Positions 11,117 to 31,006 of a DNA stretch of 64,000 bases are shown here, piece by piece. Under the pieces are notes generated by a model, which worked only from the letters and a program-made list of their open reading frames with translations, made no database searches and was not told where the DNA came from. Position 1 is the stretch's first letter, and every line of letters starts with the position of its first letter. The translations under genes were made by a program, and so were the position numbers. This DNA comes from Amphiscolops sp. MND2022. Its lineage: Eukaryota. The stretch lies in NCBI GenBank assembly GCA_964187785.1, contig OZ076412.1:46004001-46068000 (forward strand), written 5' to 3'.

Positions 11117-13319
11117 TTTTTCTTTCCGATGCACCTCTAGTGTTCAAGATAATTGCTAGGAACAAAGCAGCACCAACAACCGAAGTGCCTTTCAATGGGC
11201 GATGGCCATTCATGCGGTTCAGCTATCGCATTGTGAGTACTGAATGCGAGTGTCGATAAAAAGTTGTTTTAAAACAAAAGTCACGGTTTTAACACAACAA
11301 CCGTGTTCGTACCTATGGGAAGAGAACCTCTTCAATTCAATTACTTTTATTCTTGGTACCAAATGAGCCCTAATAATTGGCCATTTTACTCTTTGAACAC
11401 CTTGCTGCATTGTGAATAATTGCCTCCCCAAGCTGCTCCAAAGAAACTATGTGTAATTTTCTTGAACACGATCGAGCTTGTTCAAAGGTTAGGAAAGGTA
11501 AGCCTAAAAAGAGCCTGACAGTTCATTCGAGCTTGTTAAATATAATTGGTTCTACATCAAAAATCAGGATTTGCTGTTAAAGCGTAGAAAATTGAGGAGC
11601 GTATATGGATTTGGTGCTTAAAACTACATTTTGTACGCGATTGACAATTTTCATTATATCATATTAACCAAATGCACTTAAGCGTCACAAATGGATGCTG
11701 CATACACTTCTTGCAGAGAGCGTCTTGCTCATTGTATGAAGTCTTTCATAGTTTTTTCCACATCAACTTAAACAAGGTTAAGCGATTGACAAATGCTGTG
11801 ACAAGCAGTTTAATCTATAAATCAAACCATCAGTTTTCATCGAAAAATCAAAATTCAATTACTAGAAAAAGCGGGACAACAATGTTCACGTTATACTTAT
11901 CTCAAAATGGAGAAGATAAGTTCTTAAGGTTGCAAAATGCAGGCTTGAGTCGATTGTTAACATAGTGCGTTATTTATTATTCAAGGGCGTAAATTCTCCA
12001 TAGAAATCGTCAAAAACCACGTGATCCGAAGATCAAACAACAATCAAGTCAAAACGTTCTATTGCCTGCTATGAATGAAATTCACACACCCAACATCAAA
12101 GTCTGCATCTTATTCAGCTCATTGCCGACCGATAGCGCAGTAAACCCTATCGCTTTCAACTTCATCAACCTACAATTATTTATATAAAGCGGTATCAAAA
12201 GCCACCAGGCATGATAGAAGGGACTAAATTCGTCAAAATTCTTGGAGCTCGGACAAAACAACAAATCAGGAGGCACTTTTTCTGTCATATTCAATCACAT
12301 TAAATTCATTGCGAATGCTTCTGACCTCCAAAATTTTAGACGTATCTTGCTTCCGTTGAACCAGAGCCCAATCTAATTCAATTGCTATAATGTTACGTGC
12401 ATAACAAACACTTCCGTAATAACCTTGCCCCTCCCTCCATCTCAGACTGTATGTAATTCACTGTTATATCCACGGGGCCGAAACGATAGAACATGGAGGA
12501 TTCATGTCGAAAGCATGTAACATTTACAACAAGGATTAATTCCTAATCATGTTCATTGCAGTACCAATGTCCGCTAGAGAAATTCCTTTTCTGTCCTTAT
12601 TCGCTCCCAGCAGGAGCCCGACATAAGCCTTTACAAGGAACATTGTTAATACAGTGCAGGGAGGAATAATAAAGCCTATATTGAACAAGAAAGCTGTGGG
12701 CATTTGACATAGTAATGATTCATAAAACATACGCTAGGATCTACAGCAATCTAAAGACAAACATAAATCCTTAGTTCACGACAGGACAAAAGTTGGAAAC
12801 GAAACTGAATCGTAAATAAATCATGAACTGAAGCGAAACGCCAATCGTTAATACCTTTCCAAACTGAACCAAAAAGTAGTAAATTGCGTCAACAACTTCT
12901 CTTCTCTAGGGACAAACACAGCGAGCGGATTCCCTTTAAAGCCCTACATTTGTCCACTTCCAACAGGCCATTAAAAGAAAGACACAACATAAATCGCTTC
13001 CCCCATTGACATGTATTTCAATTAGAACTATATTTAATGTGATATGACAAATCCAATTGTCGCGTTATGACTAACGCTTTAACAAACATAATTAGGTGCT
13101 AAAGTGCAGTTTATATTTAATTAACAAATAAAGAAACAAACATGAACTAGAACTAACGTTTGTTTATGGGGGAGAAAGTTGTAGATGAAGATGGCGGCCA
13201 TAAGGCGGCGGCCATAACGATGGTAATAATGATGATGAAGTACTGTGACGAGAAAGGAATTGCACAAGTGAAGAATTCTATATTATACCGCGTATATTTG
13301 AAATATGAAACCAACTATG

Positions 13320-13386
13320 ATTGGTGAAAGATAAGCCATGCCTGCTACGCAGCGCACGATAAGAAATGCTTGGCTGTATATATACG
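13320..13386 (+). promoter_or_regulatory. Putative LTR U3 promoter (reverse CCAAT box and TATA)
   Basis: ATTGG at 13320-13324 and TATATATA at ~13378, followed by a long pyrimidine tract. The same motifs occur in the 3' LTR. Confidence 0.5.
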
Positions 13387-13834
13387 GCCAACGCAGGCGA
13401 GGAGATTCACACACTTATTGAAAGGGACAGAGCTTAAACTTAAAAGCTCTCGTTTCTCTTCACTTCTCTTCCACTTCTCTCCCCTCACCCCTGCTCTTCT
13501 TTCTTACTTTACCCCCTTTCCTCTCCCTTTACTATTATCTTCCCCTTCAGACTTAGAAAGTCTATTTCTCGCCTTCACATTTCAATTCCGATTGCTATTT
13601 AACTCAACAAAACTTCTTGCTTAATAACTCAGATCCAATAATTCTCTTTTAATCATACCCTTGCATCTTAGAATATTTCTCCACTCATCCTTGATTTAAC
13701 TTCAACTTCCAGAACCAATCTTCCCTTACAAGAAATTTCTAACTTAGAAATTTCTCTTCAATTTCGTCTCCGGTTTGGTGAGTCTGACTATTTGGACCTT
13801 TCAGTAGAGATTTCACTCTCTCTGAGACTTTAAC

Positions 13835-14010
13835 TTAGACTATTTTCCGCTGATTTCAATTCTGCGGTTGACAAAATCTTAGAATATTTTCCGCTGATTT
13901 CAATTCTGCGGTTGACAAAATCTTAGATTATTTTCCGCTGATTTCAATTCGGCGGTTGACAAAATCTTACCTTAGACTATTTTCCGCTGATTTCAATTCT
14001 GCGGTTGACC
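13835..14010 (+). repeat. Four tandem 44-bp units inside the LTR (also at ~30168-30343)
   Basis: TTAGACTATTTTCCGCTGATTTCAATTCTGCGGTTGACAAAATC starting at 13835, 13879, 13923 and 13972. Confidence 0.92.
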
Positions 14011-14676
14011 AAACTATAGCTTAGACTATTCTTATTAGAACTAAATTTCTATGAGGTTGAAGTTACATAAACTCACATAAGAAAAGGGATGATTGAAGTT
14101 TTAAAGTGTCTTATTATGAAAAAGTCTTAATGCTATTCAACTTTCTACTGAATAGAGACATCTAAATCAAAACTCTTCCGTTTAAAATAGTACGGATTTG
14201 TAAATTTTGTTTGAGAAAAAGATTTCCGAAGAAAAAGGGAAATTCTTATTATTTGCAAATAGTTTCATTTTCATAAATGATAAATTGTAAAAGTTATATT
14301 ACTTCTTCTTGTAAAGTGAAGTTGTGATCTTTTATAATCTGAGATTTGTAACAATTGAAAGAAATATGGCTATGTCCAGAAGTTGTTCACTTTCAATATT
14401 CTCAACTCATTCGTAATTAAACATATTTATCCACCATACATTTTCAGTAAACGGGAAGCTCATTTACAAACACCGCCTTGCGCGACTCACGCAATTTCTT
14501 TTGTTCGCACGTACACGCAAGGCACCCCTTTATCAGTAAGTTGCTAATTTATTTGTTGGGACTTATACTTGTTAAATCAATAACAGAACCGTCGCGAGAT
14601 AGTACCTTGTAAAATGCAAACAAGGACTTGACAGATTAAAACTAATAAACAAATTTCACCCATGCGTGCGACAAAC

Positions 14677-14694
14677 TGGTGCGACCAGTGAGGC
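14677..14694 (+). promoter_or_regulatory. Primer-binding site (tRNA-Ile(UAU)-like)
   Basis: TGGTGCGACCAGTGAGGC starts 3 nt after the LTR end, and TGG complements the tRNA CCA. tRNA identity is from recalled similarity to TGGTGCTCCAGGTGAGGC. Confidence 0.8.
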
Positions 14695-15710
14695 TACTTT
14701 TTCTCTTGTAATAGAGAAGTAAATGAGCTATCTGTTAGAATCCCTACTCTCAGAAGTAAGGGTTACTTACTTATTTCTCTTAACATTACTTCTAATTTTC
14801 TTCTTTCTCCTACTGCCTCAATATGTGGCTTCTCTAATCTATATAAATCGTAAAACTGCTAGTAAATACTCTAACAGAATCTCTCCAGCCTAACAGCTTT
14901 GGGAAGAGTTTATGCACTACTCTCTTTCTTTCAATCCCCAAAACCATTTGTTAGAAATGATTTACCTTTACGAAAATACTATGAGATTACCATCAGTCCT
15001 AAACAAGAATGAAACTGACTCTATACGCTTTATTTAAAGGCACAGTTGGGAAATTCACTCTAGTCCGGACGGACACAAATTAAGTAAAAGCCCGCCTAGG
15101 TCTCCTCGGAGGCTGTTTGAAGGCCGTGAGCCCAGTGGGTATCTTGGAACCTATGTAGCATTCCGAGTGGGAAACCTAGTATTCTAGTGATAGTACCCAA
15201 GTGATTGCATGATAGTGATCTGGGCCCCACGCACTTAATCCTAAAGACGAGAGTAACTCCCTCTGTGAACTAGCCGTAGTTATTTTCCTAAAGTTAAAGA
15301 AAGGCTCAAAGAGCGGATGAAAGACCTAGTGGACTGACTGTACTCTTCATAGGTTTTCTTTGGGTTAACTCGGAGGATTGGTATACCCCGAACTACCCTT
15401 TTTACGATAATCTCAACACTACTGGGATTTGTAAGTATCCCCTAAACTGTGGAATCAGAGTACGAAATATAGGAAATGAGCCTAACTTCGACCGAGAAGT
15501 GCTATTTTCATTTTTGCTAGCAGCGTATTAAGGATTTTATGATTTGTCAGACCTGTCTAATAATTATCACTATTAGAATCATAGTACAAACAATTTTTAC
15601 TTTAACTCTTTGCTGTTATTCTCAAAAGCCAAGAGTATCATACCTCATAGAGTCTTTGGCTTATTGTTCTTTGCTTCATCTTCTATCCTTTATAATCTCA
15701 ATAGCTCACA

Positions 15711-17165
15711 ATGGCTGCGCAAAATTACTTGGCTTATCCAGACCTCGGCAGAGACCAATTCACAGGAACAGACCCAGATCAAGATCCTGAACAATTTATA
15801 CAGCTAATTGAAAAGAAGTTCCGTTTCTCTCATGGTGATACCCCAGCAAACGGAGCAGCACTTGACGACTACAACTTCAGGAGAAAATCCTACTTTGCTA
15901 CACTACTAAGAGGACCAGCAGCGGAGTGGTTCGAGACAAGTATCACAGACGCTAACACCTGGCAAGAAATCAGAGAAAGGTTCATCACAAGATTCGCAGA
16001 TGGCCGAAACAAATCCAGACACAGAATGGAAGCAGAGCATGTCACCAGAAGAGATGGAGAAGAGATAAAGAATTTTCTACACAGAATCAAAATTGTTGTG
16101 GGGAAAGGCTGGCCAGATGATCTTGCCGGCGTCGCACAAAACGACAGAAACGCAGAAAGAGCAGCACAAGACCGACAAAGAAGACAAAGGTGCATCGACT
16201 ACTCACTGAGAGGCCTAAGACCTCCAAAACTGAGAGAAAAGGCACACGAATATTTAATGGATCACCCGAATGCAACCTGGGAACAATTCTCCCAAGCTGT
16301 AATAAACAAAGACCTCTCCTACACGGTAACTACCGCCCTAACTGGCGGAGAATCACATTCAGACCCACTCATACAAGAAATGCGAGACGACCTGAAGGGA
16401 ATCAAACTACAAATCAAAGAACAGATGAATAACACAATCAACGCAGTAGAGAAAACTGTAGACCCTAATGCTACAGGTCGAAGAATGGCCACACGATTCT
16501 GTGGCTACTGCCGAACAAATGGGCACACACCTAACTGGTGCAGAAAGAAGATGAGAGATGAAGAAGTGAAGAAGGTTCAAAACGAAGCTAACCCAGAAAG
16601 AAGAATAACATTCACCAACGACTACAACAAAAGAACTGGACCTGAACATGGCTCTAGATTTCAACCAAGATTGCCAGATTCAGAAATCAGAAAACATATG
16701 GCTGTGGCACATCAACTAGCACTGGCTGGAGCTATGCAGTCAAACCCTGCCTGGAATCAATACGATAGACCACAAAGAAAAAATTTCAACCCAGAACGCC
16801 GACCTACGAATACAAGAGTCAATCCTGGTAACCAAAGATTTTCACAAGAAGGGAGAAGACCCTTCCTAAACAATTCTAACAACTCCAGAAGTGTTTCCCC
16901 TGGACCCCAAAGAGCAAGATCTCCGTTCAACTTCAACAGAGACCAGTCTAGCTCCTTTAATCGCAACATACAACCTCTTCCACCAAGAAATAACTCAGTT
17001 TTTCAAAGACCACTAGACAGAAACGAAAGACCCAACACTCCAACTCAATCTTACGAGCAAAGATTCCCAAAAACTAATGACATAGGAAGATCCAACACAG
17101 TACAGTTCTTAGAAACCGACTACTCGGTGAACTCTATTGCCGATTTCCGCCCTTTAAACTACTAA
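15711..17165 (+). CDS. gag: Gag (capsid-like domain, CCHC zinc knuckle, basic N/R-rich tail)
   Basis: 484-aa ORF with LLRGPAAEWF..W.EIRERFITRF retrotransposon-gag motif and CGYCRTNGHTPNWC = CX2CX4HX4C. Confidence 0.95.
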   Translation: MAAQNYLAYPDLGRDQFTGTDPDQDPEQFIQLIEKKFRFSHGDTPANGAALDDYNFRRKSYFATLLRGPAAEWFETSITDANTWQEIRERFITRFADGRNKSRHRMEAEHVTRRDGEEIKNFLHRIKIVVGKGWPDDLAGVAQNDRNAERAAQDRQRRQRCIDYSLRGLRPPKLREKAHEYLMDHPNATWEQFSQAVINKDLSYTVTTALTGGESHSDPLIQEMRDDLKGIKLQIKEQMNNTINAVEKTVDPNATGRRMATRFCGYCRTNGHTPNWCRKKMRDEEVKKVQNEANPERRITFTNDYNKRTGPEHGSRFQPRLPDSEIRKHMAVAHQLALAGAMQSNPAWNQYDRPQRKNFNPERRPTNTRVNPGNQRFSQEGRRPFLNNSNNSRSVSPGPQRARSPFNFNRDQSSSFNRNIQPLPPRNNSVFQRPLDRNERPNTPTQSYEQRFPKTNDIGRSNTVQFLETDYSVNSIADFRPLNY

Positions 17166-17242
17166 GGTCTCCGAAAAATAGAAATAGCAGCAGTGCCCCT
17201 CTAAAATTTAGTCTTAATCTTTATTATTTTGCTGCCGGAGAC
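17150..17242 (+). promoter_or_regulatory. -1 programmed ribosomal frameshift signal
   Basis: In-phase C CCU UUA and U UUA AAC heptamers just before the gag stop. Stem GTCTCCG(17167-73)/CGGAGAC(17236-42) with inner GCAGCA/TGCTGC. The -1 frame is open into the protease. Confidence 0.85.
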
Positions 17243-20200
17243 TCACAAAAAGATAGTGGCTTAGAAATCGAATTTCTACTAGACACTGGGGCAACATCTT
17301 CAATCATCAACTACAGGACCTTTAGAGAACTTTGCCGGTTTCAACAAGACCTAGAACTTAGTAGAAGCAATAACACAACACGGAACTACTCTGGGCAGAT
17401 CATCCCTATGATGGGATACATCACCCTCAAACTCTACTACGATTCCGATGGACAACATAACTTCCCATTAACAGTCTGGATAACAGAGATGAAAACCCAA
17501 AACCTCCTTGGAATGAATTTCTGCCAAGAACAAGTTAACAAAATACACTTTGATCTTCCTGGCATAGAACTCAAAAGACTTATAAATACTTTCTGCTATG
17601 GTAGCCTACAACTCAACAAATGTTACCCCTATATATCACAAATTCTCTCAGTCAGAATTCCTCACTCAATGTATATCGAACCAAAGACGACAAGATGTTA
17701 CAAATTCGCACCAGAAAACACTAATAACTCATTTCCTCCTGGATCTACGTTCCTACCGAACAGGAAGGCAGTTTCTACTGGACTTAACTTCATAAATGTC
17801 CTCTGCACACGATTTGAGAAGACTTTACCAATCGTCATGGAAAACAACAAAAACCATACAATCACCTTAGTAAAAGGAACTATCGGATACTCAATGCTTG
17901 ACGTATTAGACCAAGAAATTCCGAAATACCAAATTAGAAACCCGACAGAACTCGCATATGCTATCCTAAACGAAAACGAAGAATACAACGACTGTTTCCT
18001 ATTACACTCTACCATTCCTTCACAAGATATGAACGATTGCCTCAGAATAGAAGGAGGAAACTCGAAAACAATACTCAGCAGACCAGACCCTATCATCATC
18101 TTCGTCCCGGCCGACCTAAAGCCAGCCAAAGGCTTCTCAAAAGAAATCCTAACGAAAATACCTTCACTTAAGGATACATGCGCAAAACAGAAACCACAGA
18201 AAGGAGAAACCATACCCTACTGGGACGAAACTCTGAAACGATTTATATATGTTCTGATTACGAAAGCAAAATCAAAAGACAAGATTGACCCACAATTACT
18301 AGTTCAATCTCTCGAAACTCTAAAAGCACACGCCAAAATGAGCGGCATCAAAACTATATCCATGCTACGGGAAGCCTCAGAGCTAGAAGACTTCCAATGG
18401 CAAGACGTCACTCAACTCATTCAAGACGTATTTGCATACTCAGAAATACAACTCCGAATTTATACAAGAAACGAACTAGATGTCTATGCCATGACTACAA
18501 GAGGAGACCCCGAATACGTACTAGAAGATGAGATACAACAATTTTCCGAGCAATTTCATCTCAAACATAGAGAGTTGGAGACAGACTTCACGAGCGACGC
18601 AAAGTCCTGTCAACCACCCTGCGATGAGCAATTTAAAATCTTCAGGCCAAAAGAAGACAACGAACGGCTGATCGAGTACTACCTTCAGTATCAAAATAAG
18701 GAAGCAGTGCGATACATTAAAGAATTCGACTTTCGCTACTCAGACCTCACAGACGAAGAACTGGTTCTCCTAATAGACTTACTAATGGACGCAAGAGATG
18801 TATACTCCCAACACAAATTTGACGTAGGGAAAACCAGACAAAAATTTAACATTAAACTAGAACCTGGAGCAATTCTAAAGAGACAGAGACCCAGCAAAGT
18901 ACCACTTCACCTACGAGAAAAGCTAGAGAAACTACTCACACAACTCAAAGACGCTGACATCATCAGAGAAATGGGCGACGATGAAGAAATGGGATCCTTA
19001 TTTGTGAATCCTATTATACTACAACCAAAACATGACTATGTCAAGCTGATCATAGATGCGAGATATCTAAACTCGGTGACAGATCTAACAAATTATTCCT
19101 GGCCCTTAGAACCGATCCAAACCATAATGACACTAATAAATGGAAACATCTTCTCAGTAAGTGATCTCTCCTGTGCATTTCACCAAGTCCCATTAGACGA
19201 GCCCACGCAAAAACTCACCAGCTTCATCATTGGCGGAAAACAATACACCTTCACCAGGGGATTCTATGGACTCAAGGGATTACCAAGCTTCTTTAGTAGA
19301 ATGATGACTATCCACTTCGAACCCCTCATCAAAAGGAAACAGGCAATTACATACATCGACGACACGTTGATGCAAGCCAAAAACAAACAAGAAATGTTCA
19401 CGGTAATTCAAGAATACCATAACTTACTGCGGAAAGCCGGACTCAAGGCAGCACCAGATAAGACACTCTTCTTCTTAAGGAAAGTCAAGTTTTTGGGACA
19501 CGTGATAGCAGCCGAAGGAATACAACCCGTCGCAAAACGAGTAAAAGACCTACACAATCTCAAATCACCAAAGACCAAAACCGAAGTGAAAAGCTTCTTA
19601 GGAGCTTTGGGCTTCTATAGCTGCTACATCAAGAATCTTCATGTCGATAGTCGACCTTTTTACGAACTCACCAAGAAAGATACAAATTTTTGCTGGAACC
19701 AAGAACACGAAGACCTTTTCCAGGAAATAAAGAAAAGAATTACCGAAGACACAGTGCTCGCAATACCCTCGACAAAATACCCCTTTCACATACACGTCGA
19801 CTCGTCAAACGTTGGGACAGGATGTATCCTCATCCAACAATTCCCAGAAGGGAAACGGATCATTTCCTTCAACTCAAGAGTTTTCGCAAAGGAAGAACAA
19901 AAGATGTCCACACTACACAGAGAATTATGTGGCATAGTCTCAGCTCTTCAGACGTATGAACACTACATCATCGGATCTCCCTTCCCCATCTACCTATACT
20001 GCGATCACAAGCCGATTCTTTATCTCTGGGGAAGAAAGGGACAAATTTCACCCCGTTTTTTCAGGTACCAAGTAATTATATCTAAATTCCCGAACCTCAA
20101 GATAATTTGGACTCCAGGAAGCAACCTAGCCTTCCCTGATATACTCAGTCGAAACGTCTCCATCGAGGAACACAAGAAACATCAACTCAGTCACAAAGTC

Positions 20201-22663
20201 ATCCCAACTGACATACACTTTTTCGACGAACATGGAACCCAAGTACACTACAAAATCAAACACGAAGAAAATGAAGAGTCATCCAAGAACGACTTTTACC
20301 CCATCTTGTACGAGAAGGGAAAAGAACGGAAAGTACTTCATCTCCAAAATGATGGGAATAACTTCAAGGTTAACTCTATCTACGAGGAACCTAACCTGCC
20401 GAAAGTAGAGTCAGCACAGAGTTGCCTCGACGCTGGAAGAGAACTTGGAAAATTCGAAGAACTAAGAATCAGGTCAGGAACACGGGATAGCACTTCGGAT
20501 TTATCACAAAACACTTACAGCTCCATCAACAGTGATACGGATGACGAAGCCCTCACAGACAATCAGAGTCAAGAAATAAACGAGACCAACTACGAGCTCA
20601 ACACAGAAGATCCCATCGCACGTAACCCAAGTCTTCCCAAAAACGCGAAGGCAATAGAACACCTCGATCTACCTACAAATTCAACTGAAAAACAAAAGAC
20701 ACCAACACAGGAACTTGTCAGACAACTTGATAAACTATCCAAAGAAGTAGAACTAAACGTTACAACGATCTTACAAGAACAAATAAATGACCCGGTACTC
20801 AGCGTGGTCCGACAATGGGTAAGAACAGGAAACAAACCCGAACCAAAATCACCAGAGTTACAACACTCAAAAGGCCTCATGCGTTACTTTCAGGAATTCG
20901 ACAGATTATCTATAGAAGGCCAAGGAAACCTCCTTTGTTATAACGAGCCAACTGATGACCCAACAGACGAGAATCTGAGAATCTGTCTACCTCTCTCTCT
21001 ATTTTTAGCTTGCTTTCGTATGGGACATTACAACGACCTCGGCGGCCACATGGGAGCAGAAAAGACCTTCCTCAATGCTAAGAGATTTTACTACTGGCCA
21101 GGGATGCACAACTGGATCTGTGCCCTCACACAAGATTGTGTTAGCTGCCAATCTAACAAATCCAAACAACGGAGAAACAACGAAGTCCCACTGGAAGACT
21201 GCGAAACCGAAACTCAAGTATTCAGAACCATCCACATTGATCACAAAGGACCACTCAATCCTCCCAGTCGTGGAAATTCACATTGCCTTCTGATCATCGA
21301 CGCCTTCTCACGTTACCTGATGGCATACCCAGTCAGAGACACAGGAGCACAATCTACAATCAATGCGATGGAAAAATGGATTATGCACTATGGCATCCCT
21401 CAATCTATCGTACATGATAGAGGAACAGCTTTCGTGAACACTGAATTCGTCAATTGGACTAAAGAGTTTGGCATTACACTTCGACCAAGAACCGCACACT
21501 CACCCTGGACAAATGGCAAAGTAGAAACTCAAAATCAACACATTGCAAGATACTGGAGAAACTTCCTAAACGAATCAGGAAACAACTGGGCCCAACTAGC
21601 TGCCAAATTTGCATTCGCCCACAACACAAGCGTCAACTACACGACTGGAAAGACCCCCTACGAGATAGTGTTTTGCAATAAACCACAGATACCTATGAGT
21701 CTGAAGCTGGGACTCTACAGGAACAAAAACAAGAACTGCAAATCACAATTCTGTCAAGGATTACCTCCTCATTGCCATAGCGAAAACCAAGTCAAAAACG
21801 AACTACTAAATGGACTATTACGACCACAACTATCACAAAGCTTATTGGAACGAGAAACAGCCTTCAAAAAGGTCTACTCATCCACATATGAAAAGTGCAG
21901 AAAACAAACAGCTCAATCACACACCTACAGGAACAGATTTAAACTTGGGAACCACCTCAACATTGGACAAAAGGTTCTGCTAGAGAACCATCGAAAAGAC
22001 CTCTCCAAAAGCCAAAAACTCCAACAACTGCGACTAGGACCCTTTACGGTTACCAAACGAATTACAAATACAACTTACCAAATAATGGAAGATCAAAACC
22101 CCGAGAATCTCCGAACTGTACATAGGAACCATCTAATAGAATACTTCCCTAAAGAAGAAACACTCCCCCCTCTTATCGAAGAATACACTACTCCCCACCG
22201 TGGAGACACGGATTTTTATAACAATCTTGTCAAAGGAAGAATTGAACAACTTAATGTTTCAGGACCACAAAAACTCGGAGACCTCTGCATATTGCCAGTA
22301 CGGAATCAACAAAACCAAATACTTGCCCGCAAAAGAACGCAAACCCCCCAGAGCACAGACTCTGGTATCATCTCTCCAGAAAATCAGTTGTTGTCAACTC
22401 CCAAGACTCCCGATCAGCCTTCGACATCACATCCTCAAAACGCAGCAACCCCTATCCTGACGTTAACTCAACGTCAACCAACTCCAGCACCCCCAACTAA
22501 CACCCCGGCATCGTCTACCAAGTCAACGACTCCCTTGCAAGAGTTACGAAAGGCTGTTGCCCGCCAAATAGAGAGAAATCCACGTTATCAGCGAGCACAA
22601 CCCAATCAACCAGCACGACAGTCCATACTTCGTGAAAGGACTAGAATTGGTTACAAAGAATAA
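17159..22663 (+). CDS. pol: Pol: aspartic protease - dUTPase-like region - macrodomain - RT - RNase H - integrase
   Basis: FLLDTGATSSII upstream of the tracked ATG in the same frame. YIDD RT motif; DSS..ELCGI..CDHKP..DILSR RNase H; H-H-C-C plus IHIDH/VHDRG/KVE integrase; GPF motif. No internal stops. Confidence 0.97.
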   Translation, partial: LLRSPKNRNSSSAPLKFSLNLYYFAAGDSQKDSGLEIEFLLDTGATSSIINYRTFRELCRFQQDLELSRSNNTTRNYSGQIIPMMGYITLKLYYDSDGQHNFPLTVWITEMKTQNLLGMNFCQEQVNKIHFDLPGIELKRLINTFCYGSLQLNKCYPYISQILSVRIPHSMYIEPKTTRCYKFAPENTNNSFPPGSTFLPNRKAVSTGLNFINVLCTRFEKTLPIVMENNKNHTITLVKGTIGYSMLDVLDQEIPKYQIRNPTELAYAILNENEEYNDCFLLHSTIPSQDMNDCLRIEGGNSKTILSRPDPIIIFVPADLKPAKGFSKEILTKIPSLKDTCAKQKPQKGETIPYWDETLKRFIYVLITKAKSKDKIDPQLLVQSLETLKAHAKMSGIKTISMLREASELEDFQWQDVTQLIQDVFAYSEIQLRIYTRNELDVYAMTTRGDPEYVLEDEIQQFSEQFHLKHRELETDFTSDAKSCQPPCDEQFKIFRPKEDNERLIEYYLQYQNKEAVRYIKEFDFRYSDLTDEELVLLIDLLMDARDVYSQHKFDVGKTRQKFNIKLEPGAILKRQRPSKVPLHLREKLEKLLTQLKDADIIREMGDDEEMGSLFVNPIILQPKHDYVKLIIDARYLNSVTDLTNYSWPLEPIQTIMTLINGNIFSVSDLSCAFHQVPLDEPTQKLTSFIIGGKQYTFTRGFYGLKGLPSFFSRMMTIHFEPLIKRKQAITYIDDTLMQAKNKQEMFTVIQEYHNLLRKAGLKAAPDKTLFFLRKVKFLGHVIAAEGIQPVAKRVKDLHNLKSPKTKTEVKSFLGALGFYSCYIKNLHVDSRPFYELTKKDTNFCWNQEHEDLFQEIKKRITEDTVLAIPSTKYPFHIHVDSSNVGTGCILIQQFPEGKRIISFNSRVFAKEEQKMSTLHRELCGIVSALQTYEHYIIGSPFPIYLYCDHKPILYLWGRKGQISPRFFRYQVIISKFPNLKIIWTPGSNLAFPDILSRNVSIEEHKKHQLSHKVIPTDIHFFDEHGTQVHYKIKHEENEESSKNDFYPILYEKGKERKVLHLQNDGNNFKVNSIYEEPNLPKVESAQSCLDAGRELGKFEELRIRSGTRDSTSDLSQNTYSSINSDTDDEALTDNQSQEINETNYELNTEDPIARNPSLPKNAKAIEHLDLPTNSTEKQKTPTQELVRQLDKLSKEVELNVTTILQEQINDPVLSVVRQWVRTGNKPEPKSPELQHSKGLMRYFQEFDRLSIEGQGNLLCYNEPTDDPTDENLRICLPLSLFLACFRMGHYNDLGGHMGAEKTFLNAKRFYYWPGMHNWICALTQDCVSCQSNKSKQRRNNEVPLEDCETETQVFRTIHIDHKGPLNPPSRGNSHCLLIIDAFSRYLMAYPVRDTGAQSTINAMEKWIMHYGIPQSIVHDRGTAFVNTEFVNWTKEFGITLRPRTAHSPWTNGKVETQNQHIARYWRNFLNESGNNWAQLAAKFAFAHNTSVNYTTGKTPYEIVFCNKPQIPMSLKLGLYRNKNKNCKSQFCQGLPPHCHSENQVKNELLNGLLRPQLSQSLLERETAFKKVYSSTYEKCRKQTAQSHTYRNRFKLGNHLNIGQKVLLENHRKDLSKSQKLQQLRLGPFTVTKRITNTTYQIMEDQNPENLRTVHRNHLIEYFPKEETLPPLIEEYTTPHRGDTDFYNNLVKGRIEQLNVSGPQKLGDLCILPVRNQQNQILARKRTQTPQSTDSGIISPENQLLSTPKTPDQPSTSHPQNAATPILTLTQRQPTPAPPTNTPASSTKSTTPLQELRKAVARQIERNPRYQRAQPNQPARQSILRERTRIGYKE

Positions 22664-22670
22664 CCTTACT

Positions 22671-23052
22671 ATGCCGTGCCATAAAGTCTATCTAAACTTG
22701 CCTTGGCAAGTCCCGCGAGAACTCCAGTCCTTAGGAATTTTGCAGGTTACGATTACTAAAATCTACTGGACCTACAAAAACAGTTAGAATTTGTTTCTAC
22801 TCCAACGACCCAGATCCTAGCCCACATAAACAACCTACGCCTAGAAAATCTAACCTTCATATACACCCAGAATCACCTACTTTCGCCCGCTTATATCAAC
22901 ACTTAGCCTATTATGCCGTCACCCACCATGACCCTATCCTAGAGGAACTACTATCCTACATGCCTACCCTGATACCTGACCTACAACCTTCATTACCTAA
23001 CACACAAAAAGACTTATTCTGCTGTTCTACTATCTCCTCGCCTAGCTCCTAG
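22671..23052 (+). pseudogene. Accessory ORF A, split by a 1-nt frameshift
   Basis: ATG at 22671 gives 38 aa. The +1 frame is open 22735-23052 (105 codons, checked manually). Removing one A from the A5 run at 22776-22780 gives one ~126-aa ORF. Confidence 0.55.
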
Positions 23053-23220
23053 CCGGATATTACCGCTTATTCGAAAAATATTATCTTTATTATTATTATT
23101 ATTATTATTAGACTTTTTATCTATACAAATTGTGCAACCCCGAGAAGGAACTTACGAAAAGCAGCAAACACAAAAGCGTAGAAAAATAAAGTATTTCCTG
23201 GAGATGAGAGGCAATAATGC

Positions 23221-23916
23221 CTACTCAACCTCCAGGAAACCTCCCTTCTCTGCAAGTCGCCGCAGCTGAGCCGCCCGCTCCCCCATTGTCCACAATGAAT
23301 AGAGGCGGGTCCACTGACCCCTCTCAAAACTAGTCAGCTGCGAGTAGCCACTTATGTAGGCTCGCAGCTGGAAGACGACTATTTCGCCGAGAGAGGACAG
23401 GAGAGTCTGCTCCCAACGGGCCCCCCAGTTAGCCCGCAAGAAACTAGTTAGAGCATTTGGACCGGGAGGCCCAGAAACAGAAAACCCGGGGGTACCCTGA
23501 AGGGAACTAGTTAATGAAGCCCAGTTTTCTAGGCGGTCGATATCCCTATGGGTAAATAAACCCATAAAACTTTGATCCCCCGGGCTCTCCAAAACACCCT
23601 GCGAGATGGTAGAGGGAGCTTGCGGAAAAGGGCCACTAGTCCTCGGGGCCACAAACGCCACAAAAGACCCACCCCCAGAGGTCCCTGCCTGAGAACCTGA
23701 TGACGAGGGAGCAGAAGAACTGGTGCGCGCTCCGCTCGACGAGGACGGCCCAGCTGACGACGACGATTGTGGCGGCAAAGAGGTAGCGGCAGTGCCCGAC
23801 ACAGACCCTGGAGCAGTAGTCTCCTCATCGGTCGAGGATTCTTCGTAATAGTCGCTATAGTTGTTGTTGTTGTTGTTGCTCATCCCTAAATACAAATTTG
23901 ATTTACTTAAAGTCAT
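23221..23916 (-). CDS. Antisense accessory ORF (S/G-rich N-terminus, helical W-rich C-terminus)
   Basis: 231-aa ORF in a GC-rich island that contrasts with the A/C-rich element. Minus-strand AATAAA at ~23087-23092 downstream of the stop. Confidence 0.7.
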   Translation of the reverse strand: MTLSKSNLYLGMSNNNNNNYSDYYEESSTDEETTAPGSVSGTAATSLPPQSSSSAGPSSSSGARTSSSAPSSSGSQAGTSGGGSFVAFVAPRTSGPFPQAPSTISQGVLESPGDQSFMGLFTHRDIDRLENWASLTSSLQGTPGFSVSGPPGPNALTSFLRANWGARWEQTLLSSLGEIVVFQLRAYISGYSQLTSFERGQWTRLYSLWTMGERAAQLRRLAEKGGFLEVE

Positions 23917-24157
23917 GCAAAATGTTTATAATTATTGATTGAAGTCAACCATATATGTATCACTATTCAACTTAGTCATCAGATATAAAATATAATATCC
24001 TACCCGGACATTTGTCTAGTTTACTACGACGACTCATGAAGTCGTAATCCTCTCTCCTCTACAAACACCCCCAAAAACGCAATGAAATAACTGATGATTC
24101 CATTCTCAGATTTGCTATGTTTGATGCACACACGCCACAAGGCATAACAGCTCACTG

Positions 24158-24379
24158 ATGATCATAATATTCAAAATTGACAACAGACTTTCCCAGATAA
24201 CTGATATTCAGAAGGAACCCTCAACACAGAACATAATCATACAAGCCTACGCAATCGCAGAAGAAGAGAGTGAAACCTACACGTGTGTGCCAGCATCACC
24301 TATCTACCCACTACTGGAGAGTCTACTATATAATAACACACCTACCGAAGTCTTCACAAGAGCCAAGTCAGTCCTTTAA
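24158..24379 (+). CDS. Accessory ORF B (73 aa), unknown function
   Basis: ATG overlaps an upstream TGA (TGATG). Stop overlaps the next start (TAATG). Confidence 0.65.
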   Translation: MIIIFKIDNRLSQITDIQKEPSTQNIIIQAYAIAEEESETYTCVPASPIYPLLESLLYNNTPTEVFTRAKSVL

Positions 24380-24774
24380 TGTCCTCTCCCGCAGTTGCCG
24401 TATTTCGAGGAAATAAGTACTACTTCCACACTCAATTTCAACCTCCGGTTCCTTGGAAACCTATACAACTCACGGGTGAATACGAAATACAGTCAATCTT
24501 TTACGAGATCACTACCTCGGCGATACAAGTCCGTATACTCACACCAGAAGACAAAGAAGCACTAGTCCTCTTCCCTATTCACTTCGGGTCCAAGGAATAC
24601 GCCTACCTATTCCTATCGTTCCAACAATACATACTCCAACACCCCGCTGTCCTTAAAGACAAGGCTTTCGACGACTTGGTTTATTTTATGGATATCACCC
24701 TAGTAACTAACCCCTTTGAAGAAGAGGTTAGAATCAAATATCTTCACACCCTAGTTGAGACCTATGATGTTTAA
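24379..24774 (+). CDS. Accessory ORF C (131 aa), unknown function
   Basis: TAATG-coupled ATG, element-like codon usage, stop overlapping the start region of ORF D. Confidence 0.75.
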   Translation: MSSPAVAVFRGNKYYFHTQFQPPVPWKPIQLTGEYEIQSIFYEITTSAIQVRILTPEDKEALVLFPIHFGSKEYAYLFLSFQQYILQHPAVLKDKAFDDLVYFMDITLVTNPFEEEVRIKYLHTLVETYDV

Positions 24775-25108
24775 AATACAACTCAAATTCCTCTGGCGTC
24801 ACCCGGAAACAAACACACTTCTTGAGATCCTCTCTATAGCCTGGAAAGAGAGCGCCCCCGCACTTCAGATTGAACTCCACAGCCTCCGACCACATCAAAC
24901 GGGACATTGGCTCATCCCTGTCGCAACAGACTCGACAGAAGCAGCAGATCTTGCGAAGGCGCTAACCGACTACAGGGAGATCGCTTACTTAGATCACGTT
25001 CACCCTCTGACCCTTCATCTCCTCAGCAAGCTAATCGATTTCCTCGACGCTCAGAGACGTAACAAACGCTCTCCCAGTCTAAAATCAATCAGTGATAACT
25101 ACAGCTGA
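24764..25108 (+). CDS. Accessory ORF D (~114 aa), unknown function
   Basis: ATGATG at 24764 overlaps the end of ORF C. The track's 24755 start is a TTG. Confidence 0.72.
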   Translation: MMFKIQLKFLWRHPETNTLLEILSIAWKESAPALQIELHSLRPHQTGHWLIPVATDSTEAADLAKALTDYREIAYLDHVHPLTLHLLSKLIDFLDAQRRNKRSPSLKSISDNYS

Positions 25109-25166
25109 ACCTTCACAGATGGTTGAAGTTAGTTTCTTTTACTATTTTTCTTCAGGCACTCTTTGA

Positions 25167-25588
25167 ATAGTAGTGAGGTTACTACTATAAAATTTTAACC
25201 TCCGCTTAGTGTCGTGCCAGCTAAGCTGCCGGTTTGATATTACGGCTTGCCTTTTTACGGCCTTATTTCAGGATCCATAACATTAAACTAAACTAAAAGA
25301 CAAATAAACTTCTCCTTCTCTTAGGTACGTGTGAACAGTAGTGAGGTTACTACTATAAAATTTTAACCTCCGCTTAGTGTTGTACCAGCTAAGCTGCCGG
25401 TTTGATATTACGGCTTGCCTTTTTACGGCCTTACTCCGAAACCTATACTTTAAACAAAAAACAACAATCTTTCCATAAGGCACTTTCCAATAGTAGTGAG
25501 GTTACTACTATAAAATTTTAACCTCCGCTTAGTGTCGTGCCAGCTAAGCTGCCGGTTTGATATTACGGCTTGCCTTTTTACGGCCTTA
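25167..25588 (+). ncRNA. Three near-identical 99-nt structured units separated by unrelated 69- and 56-nt spacers
   Basis: Copies at 25167-25265, 25335-25433 and 25490-25588. Stems and a pseudoknot were predicted by eye. The repeat is certain; an RNA function is inferred. Confidence 0.7.
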
Positions 25589-25656: not shown

Positions 25657-27804
25657 ATGAAATTATTTTACTTACTCTTTTTATGCGCCCATTACGCGCC
25701 CGTTGTGATATTACAACGTCCAACGCCAAACCTCGCTAGCGTTGCTAAAAAACTGCGAGTAACTCATTTCGACTGCGGCGAAATGACCCAAAATAAACTC
25801 TACGCATTGAATCAAGTTGAACAATGCAATGTGGCACCTGAAAACTTAGAGGTAAGTCGTGCGAGCGTAACGTTATACACTAAACATTTCCGCCGCACTA
25901 TCAACGCCACTATGTGCCGTGTGAAACATCAGAGTGAAGAATGGCATTGTGGTTATCACGACCACTCCAGTATGTCAATCCTACACGACGGAATCACCAG
26001 CGATCTTTCCCTGTCACCCGAAACCTGCAAGGCAATGGGTGAAGGCAAAGAAGTCATAATCCATGGACAACCCCTCAAATTTAAGAAAGGAGTGAAACAA
26101 GTACAGACGAGAAACGCCAAATACGGAAAGAGTTGGGACGGTGTACGCGACCCAGATACCCGAAATGAATGCAAGACAGGTGGCTGGATCAAAAGAGAAA
26201 CATTCGAATCTCACATCCAAGATGCTGAATTATCAGTAAAAACTCGAGATGGAAAAGTCCTGACTCCGTTTCAGATGGTCCTTCCCTGCCCCTTAGAACA
26301 ACTAGGTTGCGAAACGACGTCACTGGACCCATACGCCTACACATGGGCGGAGCCCGATAATTGCGTGCTTGCAGTACATAGGAAAGAAATCGTGAACATG
26401 ATCAAACACGGATCTAACTACTATATTGTAAGCGGCAACGACTCCACTACCAAATTTTTATTCGAAGTCTACAACAGACCACAAAAGTATTGCAACAAAC
26501 CAGACGATGTATACCCGACCAACTACGAATCCCTGTACGTTTCAATCCAACTTGGTGGCTTCGACATGACGTCCGGCAGACGACTAGGCATCTCCATGGG
26601 AGAGACATCTAAACTACAATATTATTCACCCGAAGATGGTTCTGGTAATGGCCGACTCCACCTCTTTCGAGGCCCGAGCGACCCCAACCCTAATACACCT
26701 CATTACCTCAACATGGATTACGAGTTACACCAAGGGACAAAGCTTGATTATCTCTTCTTTGAGAGCACTCGTCTCCTCGAAGCTTCAGAAATCCAGCTCC
26801 TCAAAGCACAATGCGAACAAGAAAGAACTCAAATCCTTACTATTTTGATGCTATCAATGGAAAATCCTCGCCTCGCCGGATACATGCTCACGGGAAATCG
26901 CTCAATGTTCCTGAACACAGATGGCAGCCTCGCTTGGCTCTACCACTGTCCGGAATCCCACTCACCTCTTCACACGATGAACCGATGCTACGACCGCATA
27001 CCCATCTTCTACAAAGGAGTGGTTGCCTTCGTGGACCCAATCACCCGACAGACCTATCCTAACGCGAACGCCCAAAATTGCAGCGATCGCATTAAGAACC
27101 TCTTTCAATTGGATATGGAAGACAAAGACTCCTGGTTTACCCTCACTCCTTCACCCGAACATCGCGACCGACCTGCTATCTTCGGACCCAAAGACATACA
27201 ACCAATGATTACTAGATCCTTCCCTGGTTCACAAGACGCGGGAATGTATACGCCTAAACAACTCTCAGAATTTTGGGACAACATCCTCATCAGCGCAGCG
27301 TCTCGCAACGCCCTCCAGAAGTTCTCACGAGAGCTCATCACACCCTCAATGGCCCATAGTGGACCTGAATCTTTCGCGTATTATGCACCCCGTACAGATT
27401 TTTATGTTGACGGCATGATCTCACCCGATTACTTCAAAAATCAGTTCCTTGAAACATTTGGAAGTATATCTTACGTACTAGAACTCTGCGGCGCGTATTT
27501 TGGCGCCTTTCTTTTCATTAAGTTCGTAATAGATATCACGGTACTCGTCTTCCGATACTTTGAACTTCGTCACCTCACAGGTAATACACTGAGCTTCACT
27601 AAAACATTGCTCAGTGCTTCGTACAATCTTTTCTTTACTTCAGTCTTAACTTCTGTATTCACCCCGCGGGCCCCTTACGAGGATAGCGTTGAAGATAAAA
27701 ACGCGAAAACTGAAGATAATGGAAAAGAAGTAGAACTCCAAGCACTGAAGAATAAGGAAGAATCACTTTATCCCTCAGTACAGAGCTTCGTAGCTCCAAT
27801 ATAA
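25657..27804 (+). CDS. env: Envelope glycoprotein, class III fusion (chuvirus G / herpes gB-like) family
   Basis: 715 aa with signal peptide and C-terminal TM segment. Cys pattern HFDC..QVEQC, CRV..HCGYHDH, CEQER..L, LYHC, CYDRIP..FVDPITR..NC matches the recalled chuvirus-like glycoprotein pattern. Confidence 0.88.
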   Translation: MKLFYLLFLCAHYAPVVILQRPTPNLASVAKKLRVTHFDCGEMTQNKLYALNQVEQCNVAPENLEVSRASVTLYTKHFRRTINATMCRVKHQSEEWHCGYHDHSSMSILHDGITSDLSLSPETCKAMGEGKEVIIHGQPLKFKKGVKQVQTRNAKYGKSWDGVRDPDTRNECKTGGWIKRETFESHIQDAELSVKTRDGKVLTPFQMVLPCPLEQLGCETTSLDPYAYTWAEPDNCVLAVHRKEIVNMIKHGSNYYIVSGNDSTTKFLFEVYNRPQKYCNKPDDVYPTNYESLYVSIQLGGFDMTSGRRLGISMGETSKLQYYSPEDGSGNGRLHLFRGPSDPNPNTPHYLNMDYELHQGTKLDYLFFESTRLLEASEIQLLKAQCEQERTQILTILMLSMENPRLAGYMLTGNRSMFLNTDGSLAWLYHCPESHSPLHTMNRCYDRIPIFYKGVVAFVDPITRQTYPNANAQNCSDRIKNLFQLDMEDKDSWFTLTPSPEHRDRPAIFGPKDIQPMITRSFPGSQDAGMYTPKQLSEFWDNILISAASRNALQKFSRELITPSMAHSGPESFAYYAPRTDFYVDGMISPDYFKNQFLETFGSISYVLELCGAYFGAFLFIKFVIDITVLVFRYFELRHLTGNTLSFTKTLLSASYNLFFTSVLTSVFTPRAPYEDSVEDKNAKTEDNGKEVELQALKNKEESLYPSVQSFVAPI

Positions 27805-27850: not shown

Positions 27851-28432
27851 AATCTAGAACCACTATTCGACCTACCAAGCCTGGACGACGATACCCTGGA
27901 TCCTATCCCAGAAAGTGACCTAGAAATCGAACCCCTATCTCCTTCAGACTTTTTGACACCAGACTCGTCTACAACAATTACCTTCCTTCCCGACCCCCCC
28001 GACTCAACGGTCCCATCATCACCCTCAAAATCTCCAACTCCAACCTTCACACCAACGCCATCCGACCAACTCCCCTTTCCTTTGTCATTCACAGGAGACA
28101 TACCACCAATCCCGTCAACACAACATCCTCCTAGATTTGGTGGAAAGGACATCAGAAGAACCACACCACAAAAACACTATCATGAATGGAACAACGAGAT
28201 AGCCGATGAAGCACCCTTACATAACCAACATAAAAGGGAATACTTCACTAGAAAAGCCAGATACGTTAAAAAACCTAGGTTTAACGCAAACCTAAAGTAT
28301 TCTCTACTCCCACAGTTTTCAACCTGGAAAATCGTCTTTTGGGACAACAAAAGACAAGAATACACTATTGAGAACCCTGCACTGAAGGGACAGCGGCTGA
28401 CAGTTCCCTTAAGATCCATATCTGCACAATGA
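27851..28432 (+). CDS. ATG-less accessory exon (acidic, P/S/T-rich, then basic), probably spliced
   Basis: Frame opens immediately after ttcattcattagtttacttttag| and is open for 193 codons. Stop overlaps the next ATG (ATGA). Confidence 0.7.
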   Translation, partial: NLEPLFDLPSLDDDTLDPIPESDLEIEPLSPSDFLTPDSSTTITFLPDPPDSTVPSSPSKSPTPTFTPTPSDQLPFPLSFTGDIPPIPSTQHPPRFGGKDIRRTTPQKHYHEWNNEIADEAPLHNQHKREYFTRKARYVKKPRFNANLKYSLLPQFSTWKIVFWDNKRQEYTIENPALKGQRLTVPLRSISAQ

Positions 28433-29367
28433 GCAAAAAATTAAACCCAAATGCCACCCCCTTCATCCCAAAACACAAACCCTACCTACCGATCCCTAAC
28501 CCCGACTGGCCACCTATGCCTGAAGAAAACGATCAAGAAGAACATGCAAACCTCGAAGGAGTGGAAAGACTAAATATGTGGATTAGTGAATGGGAGAAAT
28601 CAACTAGTACCTATAACCAGGGAACAAAAAGCACACCGCTTCGAAAGTCCTTCCCTTTAACGGACATTAATCAACCCCAAAAGAAGTTAGAAAACCGAAT
28701 CAAACTGCTATGTACCTCAATCGAAGAGGCACGAGATAAACGTCAACAATTGGAAGTCACTATCTTCGATTTGCGAGCGACAATCAAACACCAAAGCTCC
28801 CTCCTCAGCAGAGCGAGCCAGATTGAAGCGAACGGTAAAGATTTTATCACTTGGCAAGTTTCCGCCTTCTCCACACTTTACCGAAAAGCAAGGACCTCTC
28901 CAGACGATCCCTTTCACAACATCAAAAACAGCTTCGCGAGCCCTATTTACCCAACATACCTATCAGGCTGCAAAATTTCCTTCAGAATATTCCCTTACGG
29001 GATAAACATCTTCCGTGGGACCCACTCTTCTATTAGCTGTGAACTTCATTATAGCGACTTCACTCACCCACAAACATGGCCCTTTGATAAAACAGTAGAA
29101 GTCGAAATACTTGATCAGAAGGACGAAGGCAACAAGTGGTCCACACTTTTCCCAATCAACCCCCACAACCACGAAGATACCCTTCACAATCTCTACACGC
29201 ACCCGAACCTCCTCAAAGAAGACTTCATCCCTCATACGAAGTTACTTGTCAACTTCAGAGAAGCATTCCTAAACAATGACTCTATAATATTTAGAATCAA
29301 ATTTAAGGAACCTTCCCCTCAGTCACTCGCGCTACATAACTCCCCCTTCTTTCAGTCTGACCCATAA
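28429..29367 (+). CDS. PAM2 motif + coiled coil + TRAF-C/MATH domain protein
   Basis: LNPNATPFIP at the N-terminus. ITWQV, SPIY, GTHSS, WPF, ILDQ and FLNNDSIIFRI match TRAF-C motifs. No RING or zinc fingers. Confidence 0.87.
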   Translation: MSKKLNPNATPFIPKHKPYLPIPNPDWPPMPEENDQEEHANLEGVERLNMWISEWEKSTSTYNQGTKSTPLRKSFPLTDINQPQKKLENRIKLLCTSIEEARDKRQQLEVTIFDLRATIKHQSSLLSRASQIEANGKDFITWQVSAFSTLYRKARTSPDDPFHNIKNSFASPIYPTYLSGCKISFRIFPYGINIFRGTHSSISCELHYSDFTHPQTWPFDKTVEVEILDQKDEGNKWSTLFPINPHNHEDTLHNLYTHPNLLKEDFIPHTKLLVNFREAFLNNDSIIFRIKFKEPSPQSLALHNSPFFQSDP

Positions 29368-29404: not shown

Positions 29405-31006
29405 TGTCGCGTTATGACTAACGCTTTAACAAACATAATTAGGTGCTAAAGTGCAGTTTATATTTAATTAACAAATAAAGAAACAAACATGAACTAGAAC
29501 TAACGTTTGTTTATGGGGGAGAAAGTTGTAGATGAAGATGGCGGCCATAACGATGGTAATAATGATGATGAAGTACTGTGACGAGAAAGGAATTGCACAA
29601 GTGAAGAATTCTATATTATACCGCGTATATTTGAAATATGAAACCAACTATGATTGGTGAAAGATAAGCCATGCCTGCTACGCAGCGCACGATAAGAAAT
29701 GCTTGGCTGTATATATACGGCCAACGCAGGCGAGGAGATTCACACACTTATTGAAAGGGACAGAGCTTAAACTTAAAAGCTCTCGTTTCTCTTCACTTCT
29801 CTTCCACTTCTCTCCCCTCACCCCTGCTCTTCTTTCTTACTTTACCCCCTTTCCTCTCCCTTTACTATTATCTTCCCCTTCAGACTTAGAAAGTCTATTT
29901 CTCGCCTTCACATTTCAATTCCGATTGCTATTTAACTCAACAAAACTTCTTGCTTAATAACTCAGATCCAATAATTCTCTTTTAATCATACCCTTGCATC
30001 TTAGAATATTTCTCCACTCATCCTTGATTTAACTTCAACTTCCAGAACCAATCTTCCCTTACAAGAAATTTCTAACTTAGAAATTTCTCTTCAATTTCGT
30101 CTCCGGTTTGGTGAGTCTGACTATTTGGACCTTTCAGTAGAGATTTCACTCTCTCTGAGACTTTAACTTAGACTATTTTCCGCTGATTTCAATTCTGCGG
30201 TTGACAAAATCTTAGAATATTTTCCGCTGATTTCAATTCTGCGGTTGACAAAATCTTAGATTATTTTCCGCTGATTTCAATTCGGCGGTTGACAAAATCT
30301 TACCTTAGACTATTTTCCGCTGATTTCAATTCTGCGGTTGACCAAACTATAGCTTAGACTATTCTTATTAGAACTAAATTTCTATGAGGTTGAAGTTACA
30401 TAAACTCACATAAGAAAAGGGATGATTGAAGTTTTAAAGTGTCTTATTATGAAAAAGTCTTAATGCTATTCAACTTTCTACTGAATAGAGACATCTAAAT
30501 CAAAACTCTTCCGTTTAAAATAGTACGGATTTGTAAATTTTGTTTGAGAAAAAGATTTCCGAAGAAAAAGGGAAATTCTTATTATTTGCAAATAGTTTCA
30601 TTTTCATAAATGATAAATTGTAAAAGTTATATTACTTCTTCTTGTAAAGTGAAGTTGTGATCTTTATTAATCTGAGATTTGTAACAATTGAAAGAAATAT
30701 GGCTATGTCCAGAAGTTGTTCACTTTCAATATTCTCAACTCATTCGTAATTAAACATATTTATCCACCATACATTTTCAGTAAACGGGAAGCTCATTTAC
30801 AAACACCGCCTTGCGCGACTCACGCAATTTCTTTTGTTCGCACGTACACGCAAGGCACCCCTTTATCAGTAAGTTGCTAATTTATTTGTTGGGACTTATA
30901 CTTGTTAAATCAATAACAGAACCGTCGCGAGATAGTACCTTGTAAAATGCAAACAAGGACTTGACAGATTAAAACTAATAAACAAATTTCACCCATGCGT
31001 GCGACA
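29405..31006 (+). repeat. 3' LTR (1602 bp)
   Basis: Starts TGTCGC right after the PPT and ends GCGACA, followed by the TSD CAAT. Confidence 0.97.

Follow-up and report, generated by a model that had tools for sequence, protein, structure and literature searches.

The window, a 64,000-nucleotide stretch of the genome of Amphiscolops sp. MND2022 (contig OZ076412.1, positions 46,004,001 to 46,068,000), contains an intact and young LTR retroelement at 13058-31006 (Table 1). Its two LTRs are 99.0% identical over 1616 columns, with 2 mismatches and one 14-base gap, and a 4-bp target-site duplication, CAAT, is found at both ends. The LTRs and the target-site duplication, a gag gene, the order protease, reverse transcriptase (RT), RNase H and integrase, and an env-like ORF show that it is an env-bearing Ty3/gypsy element. 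The pol ORF (17081-22663) has 1860 codons without a stop and encodes these enzymes in gypsy order, and the best PDB match of its RT region was the Ty3 RT (4ol8, E = 2.6e-29). The two closest protein clusters have 108 and 36 members, and no relative was found in the viral contigs that were searched. Pol is probably made by -1 frameshifting as a Gag-Pol protein that enters the particle. Since the macrodomain described below lies in frame in pol, and since gag and pol are linked by the slippery site TTTAAAC for -1 frameshifting, its packaging with Pol, as suggested in a preliminary description of this DNA, is plausible.

Table 1. Features of the Ty3/gypsy element, in window coordinates.
Feature	Position	Strand	Basis
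5' LTR (TG...CA)	13058..14673	+	LTR comparison
PBS-like sequence starting TGG, 3 bases 3' of the 5' LTR	14677..14693	+	sequence
gag ORF	15711..17165	+	PF03732 Retrotrans_gag, E 2e-06
TTTAAAC slippery heptamer, immediately 5' of the gag stop; pol is read in the -1 frame	17153..17159	+	sequence; frameshifting inferred
Aspartic protease (LLDTGA), Pol residues 60-149	17258..17527	+	PF13975, E 1.4e-05, under the curated cut-off
Unnamed beta-rich domain, Pol 170-305	17588..17995	+	no Pfam match; low-confidence model
TARG1/OARD1-class macrodomain with eroded ADP-ribose pocket, Pol 316-463	18026..18469	+	sequence and structure matches
Loop 1: IFVP at the TARG1 His32-Cys33-Ile34-Ser35 positions	18098..18109	+	alignment
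Lys at the catalytic Lys84 position, kept	18263..18265	+	alignment
Glu at the Gly123 position, pyrophosphate loop	18380..18382	+	alignment
Glu at the catalytic Asp125 position	18386..18388	+	alignment
VYAM, candidate protease cleavage site at the junction of macrodomain and pre-RT region	18482..18493	+	motif likeness
Reverse transcriptase (YIDD) and RNase H	19133..20089	+	PF00078, E 1.2e-18; PF17919; PF17917
Integrase zinc finger and core	21002..21505	+	PF17921, PF00665
env-like fusion glycoprotein ORF	25657..27804	+	PF24664 viral fusion glycoprotein, E 4.5e-33
Accessory ORF: TRAF/MATH domain and N-terminal PAM2-like motif	28429..29367	+	profile matches
3' LTR	29405..31006	+	LTR comparison

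The accessory ORF matches PF22486 (E = 2.4e-09), PF21355 (E = 2.6e-08) and TRAF5 (E = 3.3e-06), and its PAM2-like motif matches PF07145 at E = 0.002, under the cut-off; a captured immune-adaptor domain is present inside the same LTR element. The TRAF domain and the env-bearing gypsy type point to an animal host. Further ORFs of the element lack a convincing Pfam match (23221-23925 on the minus strand; 24337-24774, 24755-25108 and 27851-28432 on the plus strand). A 150-base repeat occurs three times at 25117-25589, just upstream of the env-like ORF, and 44-base tandem repeats lie within both LTRs (13790-14067 and 30123-30400).

The preliminary description, made from the letters alone, had recognized a TARG1/OARD1-like macrodomain in Pol. 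The stretch 18038-18469 (+) translates stop-free to the residues quoted there, and a phmmer search of the PDB with a 161-residue piece (P0002) found human TARG1/C6orf130 at E = 1.1e-11, with the next, unrelated match at E = 0.59. An AlphaFold model for which a 92-row alignment was supplied had a pLDDT of 88-98 across the macrodomain (folding of the single sequence reached a pLDDT of 46 and was set aside), and the domain boundaries follow the residues aligned in the structural comparison (152-299 of the model). The top Foldseek match of this model was TARG1 (4j5s, E = 1.1e-11, rmsd 1.9), and VIA also placed TARG1 at the top (Z = 19.9, rmsd 2.1, 142 aligned residues), followed by DarG (Z = 17.5). 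Model, Foldseek and VIA agree on an alpha/beta/alpha macro fold, and the closest solved sequence and the closest solved structure are both TARG1, which assigns the domain to the TARG1/OARD1 class by descent. The proposed identity is thus borne out by sequence and by predicted structure. The profile evidence was divided: the Pfam Macro profile (PF01661) did not match this copy even with E values of up to 1 allowed, but it matched 66 of the 92 aligned homologues, and the first Atlas match of the macrodomain (0.92) carries Macro on 37% of its members. The missing Pfam match is what could be expected if a single dead copy had simply decayed, or if the likeness were due to chance. Such an explanation is extremely improbable in view of the open 1860-codon pol, the 99% identical LTRs with their target-site duplication, the presence of the same loops in 22/22 copies, the clusters of 108 and 36 members, and the E value of 1e-11 and Z of 19.9 to TARG1.

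The macrodomain had been placed between protease and RT. It does lie in frame before RT, but it does not directly follow the protease: the gap of ~135 aa is an unnamed domain (Pol 170-305). This domain is also present in Pols that lack the macrodomain, with 22-32% identity when the protease is included, and by this comparison it is older than the macrodomain insertion. It has no match in Pfam, no dUTPase family was among the 25 families listed of 35, and the pLDDT of the model is below 60 there. A dUTPase-like look by eye, from a motif likeness, found no support in these results. In the Atlas it matches unnamed eukaryotic clusters with scores of 0.90-0.91. On the other side of the macrodomain, release from RT could possibly occur at the VYAM motif, a candidate protease site by likeness to gypsy sites; similar motifs are found in 27 sister proteins and are not kept in P0308, P0310 and P0315.

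Residues are numbered as in human TARG1 by alignment to the PDB chain (offset 6), and Thr83, Lys84, Pro118, Gly123 and Asp125 agree with the literature. The domain keeps Lys84, Thr83 and Gly43. Compared to TARG1, Leu has replaced Pro118, Ala has replaced Gly121, and Glu stands at the Ile120, Gly123 and Asp125 positions, while in loop 1 the His32, Cys33, Ser35 and Met40 positions have become Ile, Phe, Pro and Pro, respectively; the adenine loop of this group of elements has a 3-residue insertion compared to TARG1. The kept catalytic Lys, the Asp125 to Glu change and the replacement of IGCG by EASE, with a Glu of EASE at the Gly123 position, were read correctly in the preliminary description. 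A second altered loop reported there, AKG in place of GAG, is mostly ordinary variation: at the Ala42 site, Lys occurs more often than any other residue (62 of 128 rows), and Gly43, found in 109 of 128 rows, is present here too, so that we rejected AKG as an aberrant loop. From the alignment, the true loop-1 change sits at the His32, Cys33 and Ser35 positions and at Met40.

The Glu at the Gly123 position was present in 22/22 lineage copies that cover the loop, these being a subset of 30 lineage proteins (15 listed from each of the clusters of 108 and 36 members). Among other homologues (the best 150 of 207 library matches, own lineage removed), Gly123 was kept in 133 of 145 domain rows and Glu occurred in none. 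In the excerpts of PMC6397177 that we used, loops of TARG1 are assigned to ribose and pyrophosphate binding, and a TARG1 pattern is defined, TKx(30,35)Px[IL]GxGxD. The present domain fails this pattern, which 31 of 57 listed sister proteins and 92 of the best 150 of 207 matches pass. Regarding the features of an active TARG1-type hydrolase, Lys84 is present, and Asp125, the pattern and the His32/Cys33/Ser35 loop are not. Judged by its residues, the domain is TARG1-class by descent, yet it fails the sequence tests for an active TARG1 hydrolase.

In human TARG1, the laboratory mutant G123E does not bind ADP-ribose, is inactive, is stabler than the wild type and still binds RNA, according to excerpts of PMC5928194. 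From this result, the present lineage naturally carries the standard binding-dead change; unlike in the laboratory mutant, the change is fixed in a multi-copy family and is joined by further pocket changes. By analogy with G123E, the domain most likely neither binds nor hydrolyzes ADP-ribose. The pseudo-enzyme reading of the preliminary description therefore stands by inference, through the Glu at Gly123 and the failed TARG1 pattern. The decoy proposed next to it, in which the domain would bind ADP-ribose and shield modified targets from host readers without hydrolysis, fits the kept fold and Gly43 and a change at Asp125 that would impair turnover. However, the binding residues were hit first (Gly121, Gly123, Pro118 and Ser35), G123E removes binding in TARG1 in the same excerpts, and an ADP-ribose sponge requires a pocket that here appears blocked, so that the decoy is poorly supported and very unlikely.

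In order to place these changes among related elements, the upstream domain together with the macrodomain was used as a query, giving 204 matches. The best 120 were examined; after removal of 7 proteins of the own lineage, 57 of 113 cover the catalytic sites. Most of these 57 listed sisters have the canonical residues: Lys84 in 54, Gly123 in 52 and Asp125 in 56, and His32, Cys33 and Ser35 in 55, 54 and 55, respectively. All 24 sister proteins that were checked have the domain in the same part of Pol, and many of them align from the protease onward. These sister families, with an intact-looking TARG1 pocket at the same Pol position, probably still erase ADP-ribose. The preliminary description had overlooked this intact-looking pocket, because of which the idea of counter-defence would fit the sister families best.

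In a tree of 65 domain rows, five eroded rows formed one clade (support 100/99) with a stem of 0.79, nested in a clade of retroelement macrodomains (96/95) that has intact members. A search with the RT region gave 28 long Pols, or 29 rows with the present one, of which 10 have a macrodomain before RT, 9 continue from the upstream domain to RT with no macrodomain in between, and the remaining 10 are ambiguous or lack coverage of the region. When 27 of these rows were placed in a quick tree of RT/RNase H (P0327 and P0328 were too short and were left out), all ten carriers fell in one 12-row clade (SH-aLRT 96), and all nine macro-less Pols lay outside it. The distance from protease to YxDD is 692 residues here versus 523-525 in P0312 and P0313. 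Since the carriers fall in one clade and this distance differs, tree and alignment indicate a single macrodomain insertion of ~170 aa. No deletion of the domain was seen within the carrier clade, in which 10/10 members covering the region keep it. Erosion took different forms: in P0308 the Gly43 and Gly121 positions are Lys and Glu, and in P0315 the Asp125 position is His. All four eroded lineages (P0001, P0005, P0308 and P0315), which are 19-45% identical, have preserved Lys84, and three of them have lost Thr83. By their residues, versions that look intact and versions that look pocket-dead coexist in sister families.

Tree and alignment show that the ancestor of a Ty3/gypsy clade acquired an ADP-ribosyl hydrolase domain of the TARG1 class in a single in-frame insertion, directly upstream of RT. 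We propose that translation as Gag-Pol via -1 frameshifting would bring it into the particle, and that sister families with the full pocket would still erase ADP-ribose. In the present lineage the pocket was remodelled (Glu at Gly123; Gly121, Pro118, His32, Cys33 and Ser35 lost; Asp125 to Glu), and, as in human G123E, ADP-ribose would be neither bound nor hydrolyzed. The domain would have been retained mainly as a stable fold, which Gag-Pol has to maintain in the stretch from the protease region to RT. With a probability of roughly one half, it is a pseudo-macrodomain without ADP-ribose binding that is kept mainly as a folded Gag-Pol module. We place most weight here because relatives manage without the domain and because lineages eroded different residues: nine related Pols lack it, so the wider group does not need a macrodomain, and P0308 and P0315 lost the pocket at different sites. 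The preserved fold (pLDDT 88-98) and the G123E mutant, stabler than the wild type while inactive and without ADP-ribose binding (PMC5928194, excerpts), also argue for a folded module. On the other hand, the mutant was made in a protein that shares only about 25% identity with the present domain. Pure scaffolding does not predict that Lys84 is kept in four eroded lineages with Thr83 lost in three, and for a mere passenger it is odd that 10/10 carrier-clade Pols covering the region keep the domain while relatives lack it.

The rate of change was compared between the domain and its flanks. The present lineage and the sister group A, which is intact, share 36% identity in the domain and 65% and 60% in its flanks; between the intact groups A and B, the domain is 41% identical and the flanks 56% and 45%. 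Since the domain reaches only 36% with flanks of 60-65%, while A and B have 41% with more distant flanks, the domain was sped up in the present lineage. In seven of eight protein-level comparisons among its subfamilies, the domain had distances of 0.09-0.10, RT of 0.03-0.04 and the RNase H-integrase spacer of 0.53-0.59; these comparisons involve non-independent rows, and the spacer serves as a rough neutral yardstick. The eighth comparison, with P0004, gave 0.12 for the domain, 0.21 for the spacer and 0.016 for RT. Substitutions in the domain among subfamilies were mostly conservative, and no indels were seen in the long copies. By these distances, the domain diverged fast and then stayed conserved, about 5x slower than the spacer.

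A burst of change followed by conservation also fits a new role, and a repurposed pseudo-enzyme, whose dead pocket leaves an ADP-ribose-independent role in binding particle RNA or cDNA or a host protein, ranks second, as a less likely alternative to the folded module. TARG1 G123E still binds RNA (PMC5928194, excerpts), SUD macrodomains bind G-quadruplexes and not ADP-ribose (PMC2674928, excerpts), and an SUD-Paip1 complex was among the structural matches of our model. In addition, 17 derived residues, the new loop 1 included, are common to P0005 at only 45% identity. However, the invariant 9-residue loop is no more conserved than the domain average allows, and such a loop is expected often at 9% divergence. 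The domain is basic (net charge +4, pI 9.0), but the charge is inside the range of the intact sisters (-4 to +8). The RNA-binding residues of TARG1 are K50, R86 and R126, according to excerpts of bioRxiv 10.64898/2026.03.31.715305, and of these positions one is still basic here, one is Thr and one is Asp, which speaks against RNA binding through the TARG1 surface.

The preserved lysine is the basis of a further explanation, an enzyme of altered specificity, as the preliminary description had also suggested, or a covalent trap, in which Lys84 would attack a sugar C1 and Glu125 would resolve the adduct slowly or never; the sugar would belong to an abasic site or a similar lesion, or to a nucleic acid carrying ADP-ribose. 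In TARG1, a lysyl intermediate is resolved by Asp125, according to excerpts of PMC6397177 and bioRxiv 10.64898/2026.03.31.715305. The change from Asp125 to Glu is conservative and common to P0005, and Lys84 has been kept in P0001, P0005, P0308 and P0315 across 19-45% identity. Nevertheless, an acidic residue at Gly123 (Glu or Asp) is expected to obstruct the pyrophosphate site if G123E is a guide (PMC5928194, excerpts), the ribose-contacting positions His32, Cys33 and Ser35 are changed, the kept lysine may be structural, and His at Asp125 in P0315 and Lys at Gly43 in P0308 indicate no new shared active site. We consider a trap or altered enzyme unlikely, though less so than the decoy.

Macro/Appr-1 domains are annotated in some retroelements. 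Compared to human TARG1/OARD1/C6orf130 (4j5r, 4j5s, 2lgr), the present domain has the same fold with ~25% identity, Thr83-Lys84, Gly43 and the same order of strands and helices, but it lies inside a retroelement Pol, with the His32, Cys33, Ser35, Met40, Pro118, Gly121, Gly123 and Asp125 positions changed. The DarG macrodomain (5m3i, 5m3e) belongs to the same macro branch (Z = 17.5), but it is an active bacterial antitoxin with 15-19% identity. Two elements of the finding were already known, as far as the excerpts of PMC4977317 and PMC2674928 go: macro-domain ORFs in fish endogenous retroviruses and pocket-dead viral macrodomains. Fish epsilon-like endogenous retroviruses carry macro-domain ORFs (Basta et al. 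2009, cited in PMC4977317) and are, like the present element, LTR retroelements that captured a macrodomain; compared by description only, theirs are additional ORFs, whereas ours is an in-frame insertion in a Ty3/gypsy Pol with an eroded pocket. SARS-CoV SUD-N and SUD-M and the IBV Beaudette X domain (PMC2674928, excerpts) are likewise macrodomains of viral polyproteins in which residues of the glycine loop are gone and ADP-ribose is no longer bound. They differ in belonging to another macro class and to RNA viruses, and SUD has demonstrated new ligands. The env-carrying Ty3/gypsy 'errantiviruses' (PMC13524379, excerpts) have the same LTR-gag-pol-env layout and a recent multi-copy expansion, and the present element differs from them in carrying several extra ORFs. 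In the main text of PMC13524379 there is no occurrence of 'macro' or 'ADP', and its supplements could bear on this point. In our literature search, which covered mainly papers outside subscription journals and Repbase notes, mostly at the level of listings, none pointed to a TARG1-like domain in a gypsy Pol.

The carrier clade and its relatives provide a natural matched set at one polyprotein position, with intact, partly eroded and pocket-dead TARG1 domains and relatives without the domain. This series makes it testable whether ADP-ribosylation restricts LTR retrotransposons outside vertebrates, and what a macrodomain does after the loss of its pocket. Should the domain be no more than a folded passenger, the finding would be a neat example of how an enzyme was captured and eroded, and its interest would be modest. 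A broader scenario, which we offer as speculation, is that TARG1-class erasers were repeatedly captured against an ADP-ribosylation-based invertebrate defence directed at retrotransposon RNA, cDNA or proteins. In the carrier clade, they would then have been converted several times to a pocket-dead, Lys84-keeping module with a new job, as a binder of nucleic acid or host protein or as a covalent trap, and the TRAF/MATH protein would be part of a small captured counter-immunity kit.

Other gypsy Pols have TARG1-like domains too, at different places, from which capture seems to recur. The domain follows RNase H in P0135 and P0116, lies directly 3' of the protease in P0146 and stands at the end of a gag-like protein in P0136; in the domain tree, the P0146 and P0136 domains branch separately. 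P0135 and P0037 each have an intact domain and, after it, a second domain with a weak match (E = 7e-06 and 5e-09), and P0105 has a strongly eroded TARG1-like domain. The domains of P0135, P0116, P0037 and P0105 may correspond to the 'pseudo' bridge domains in the excerpts of PMC13524379. P0139, a gypsy-type Pol of 1651 aa, has a C-terminal macrodomain and then a Tpt1/KptA domain (PF01885, E = 3e-06), and could possibly combine an ADP-ribose writer and eraser in one retroelement protein.

Elsewhere in the window, a LINE element lies at 47566-51319 (-), with a 940-codon endonuclease-RT ORF and a 285-codon ORF before it, and a 445-base tandem repeat is present in four copies at 52776-54410. A 2351-base tandem repeat at 56452-63541 (-) contains a 246-codon ORF three times and adjoins a 311-codon ORF, without a Pfam match. 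The 246- and 311-codon ORFs look like Polinton-type capsid genes.
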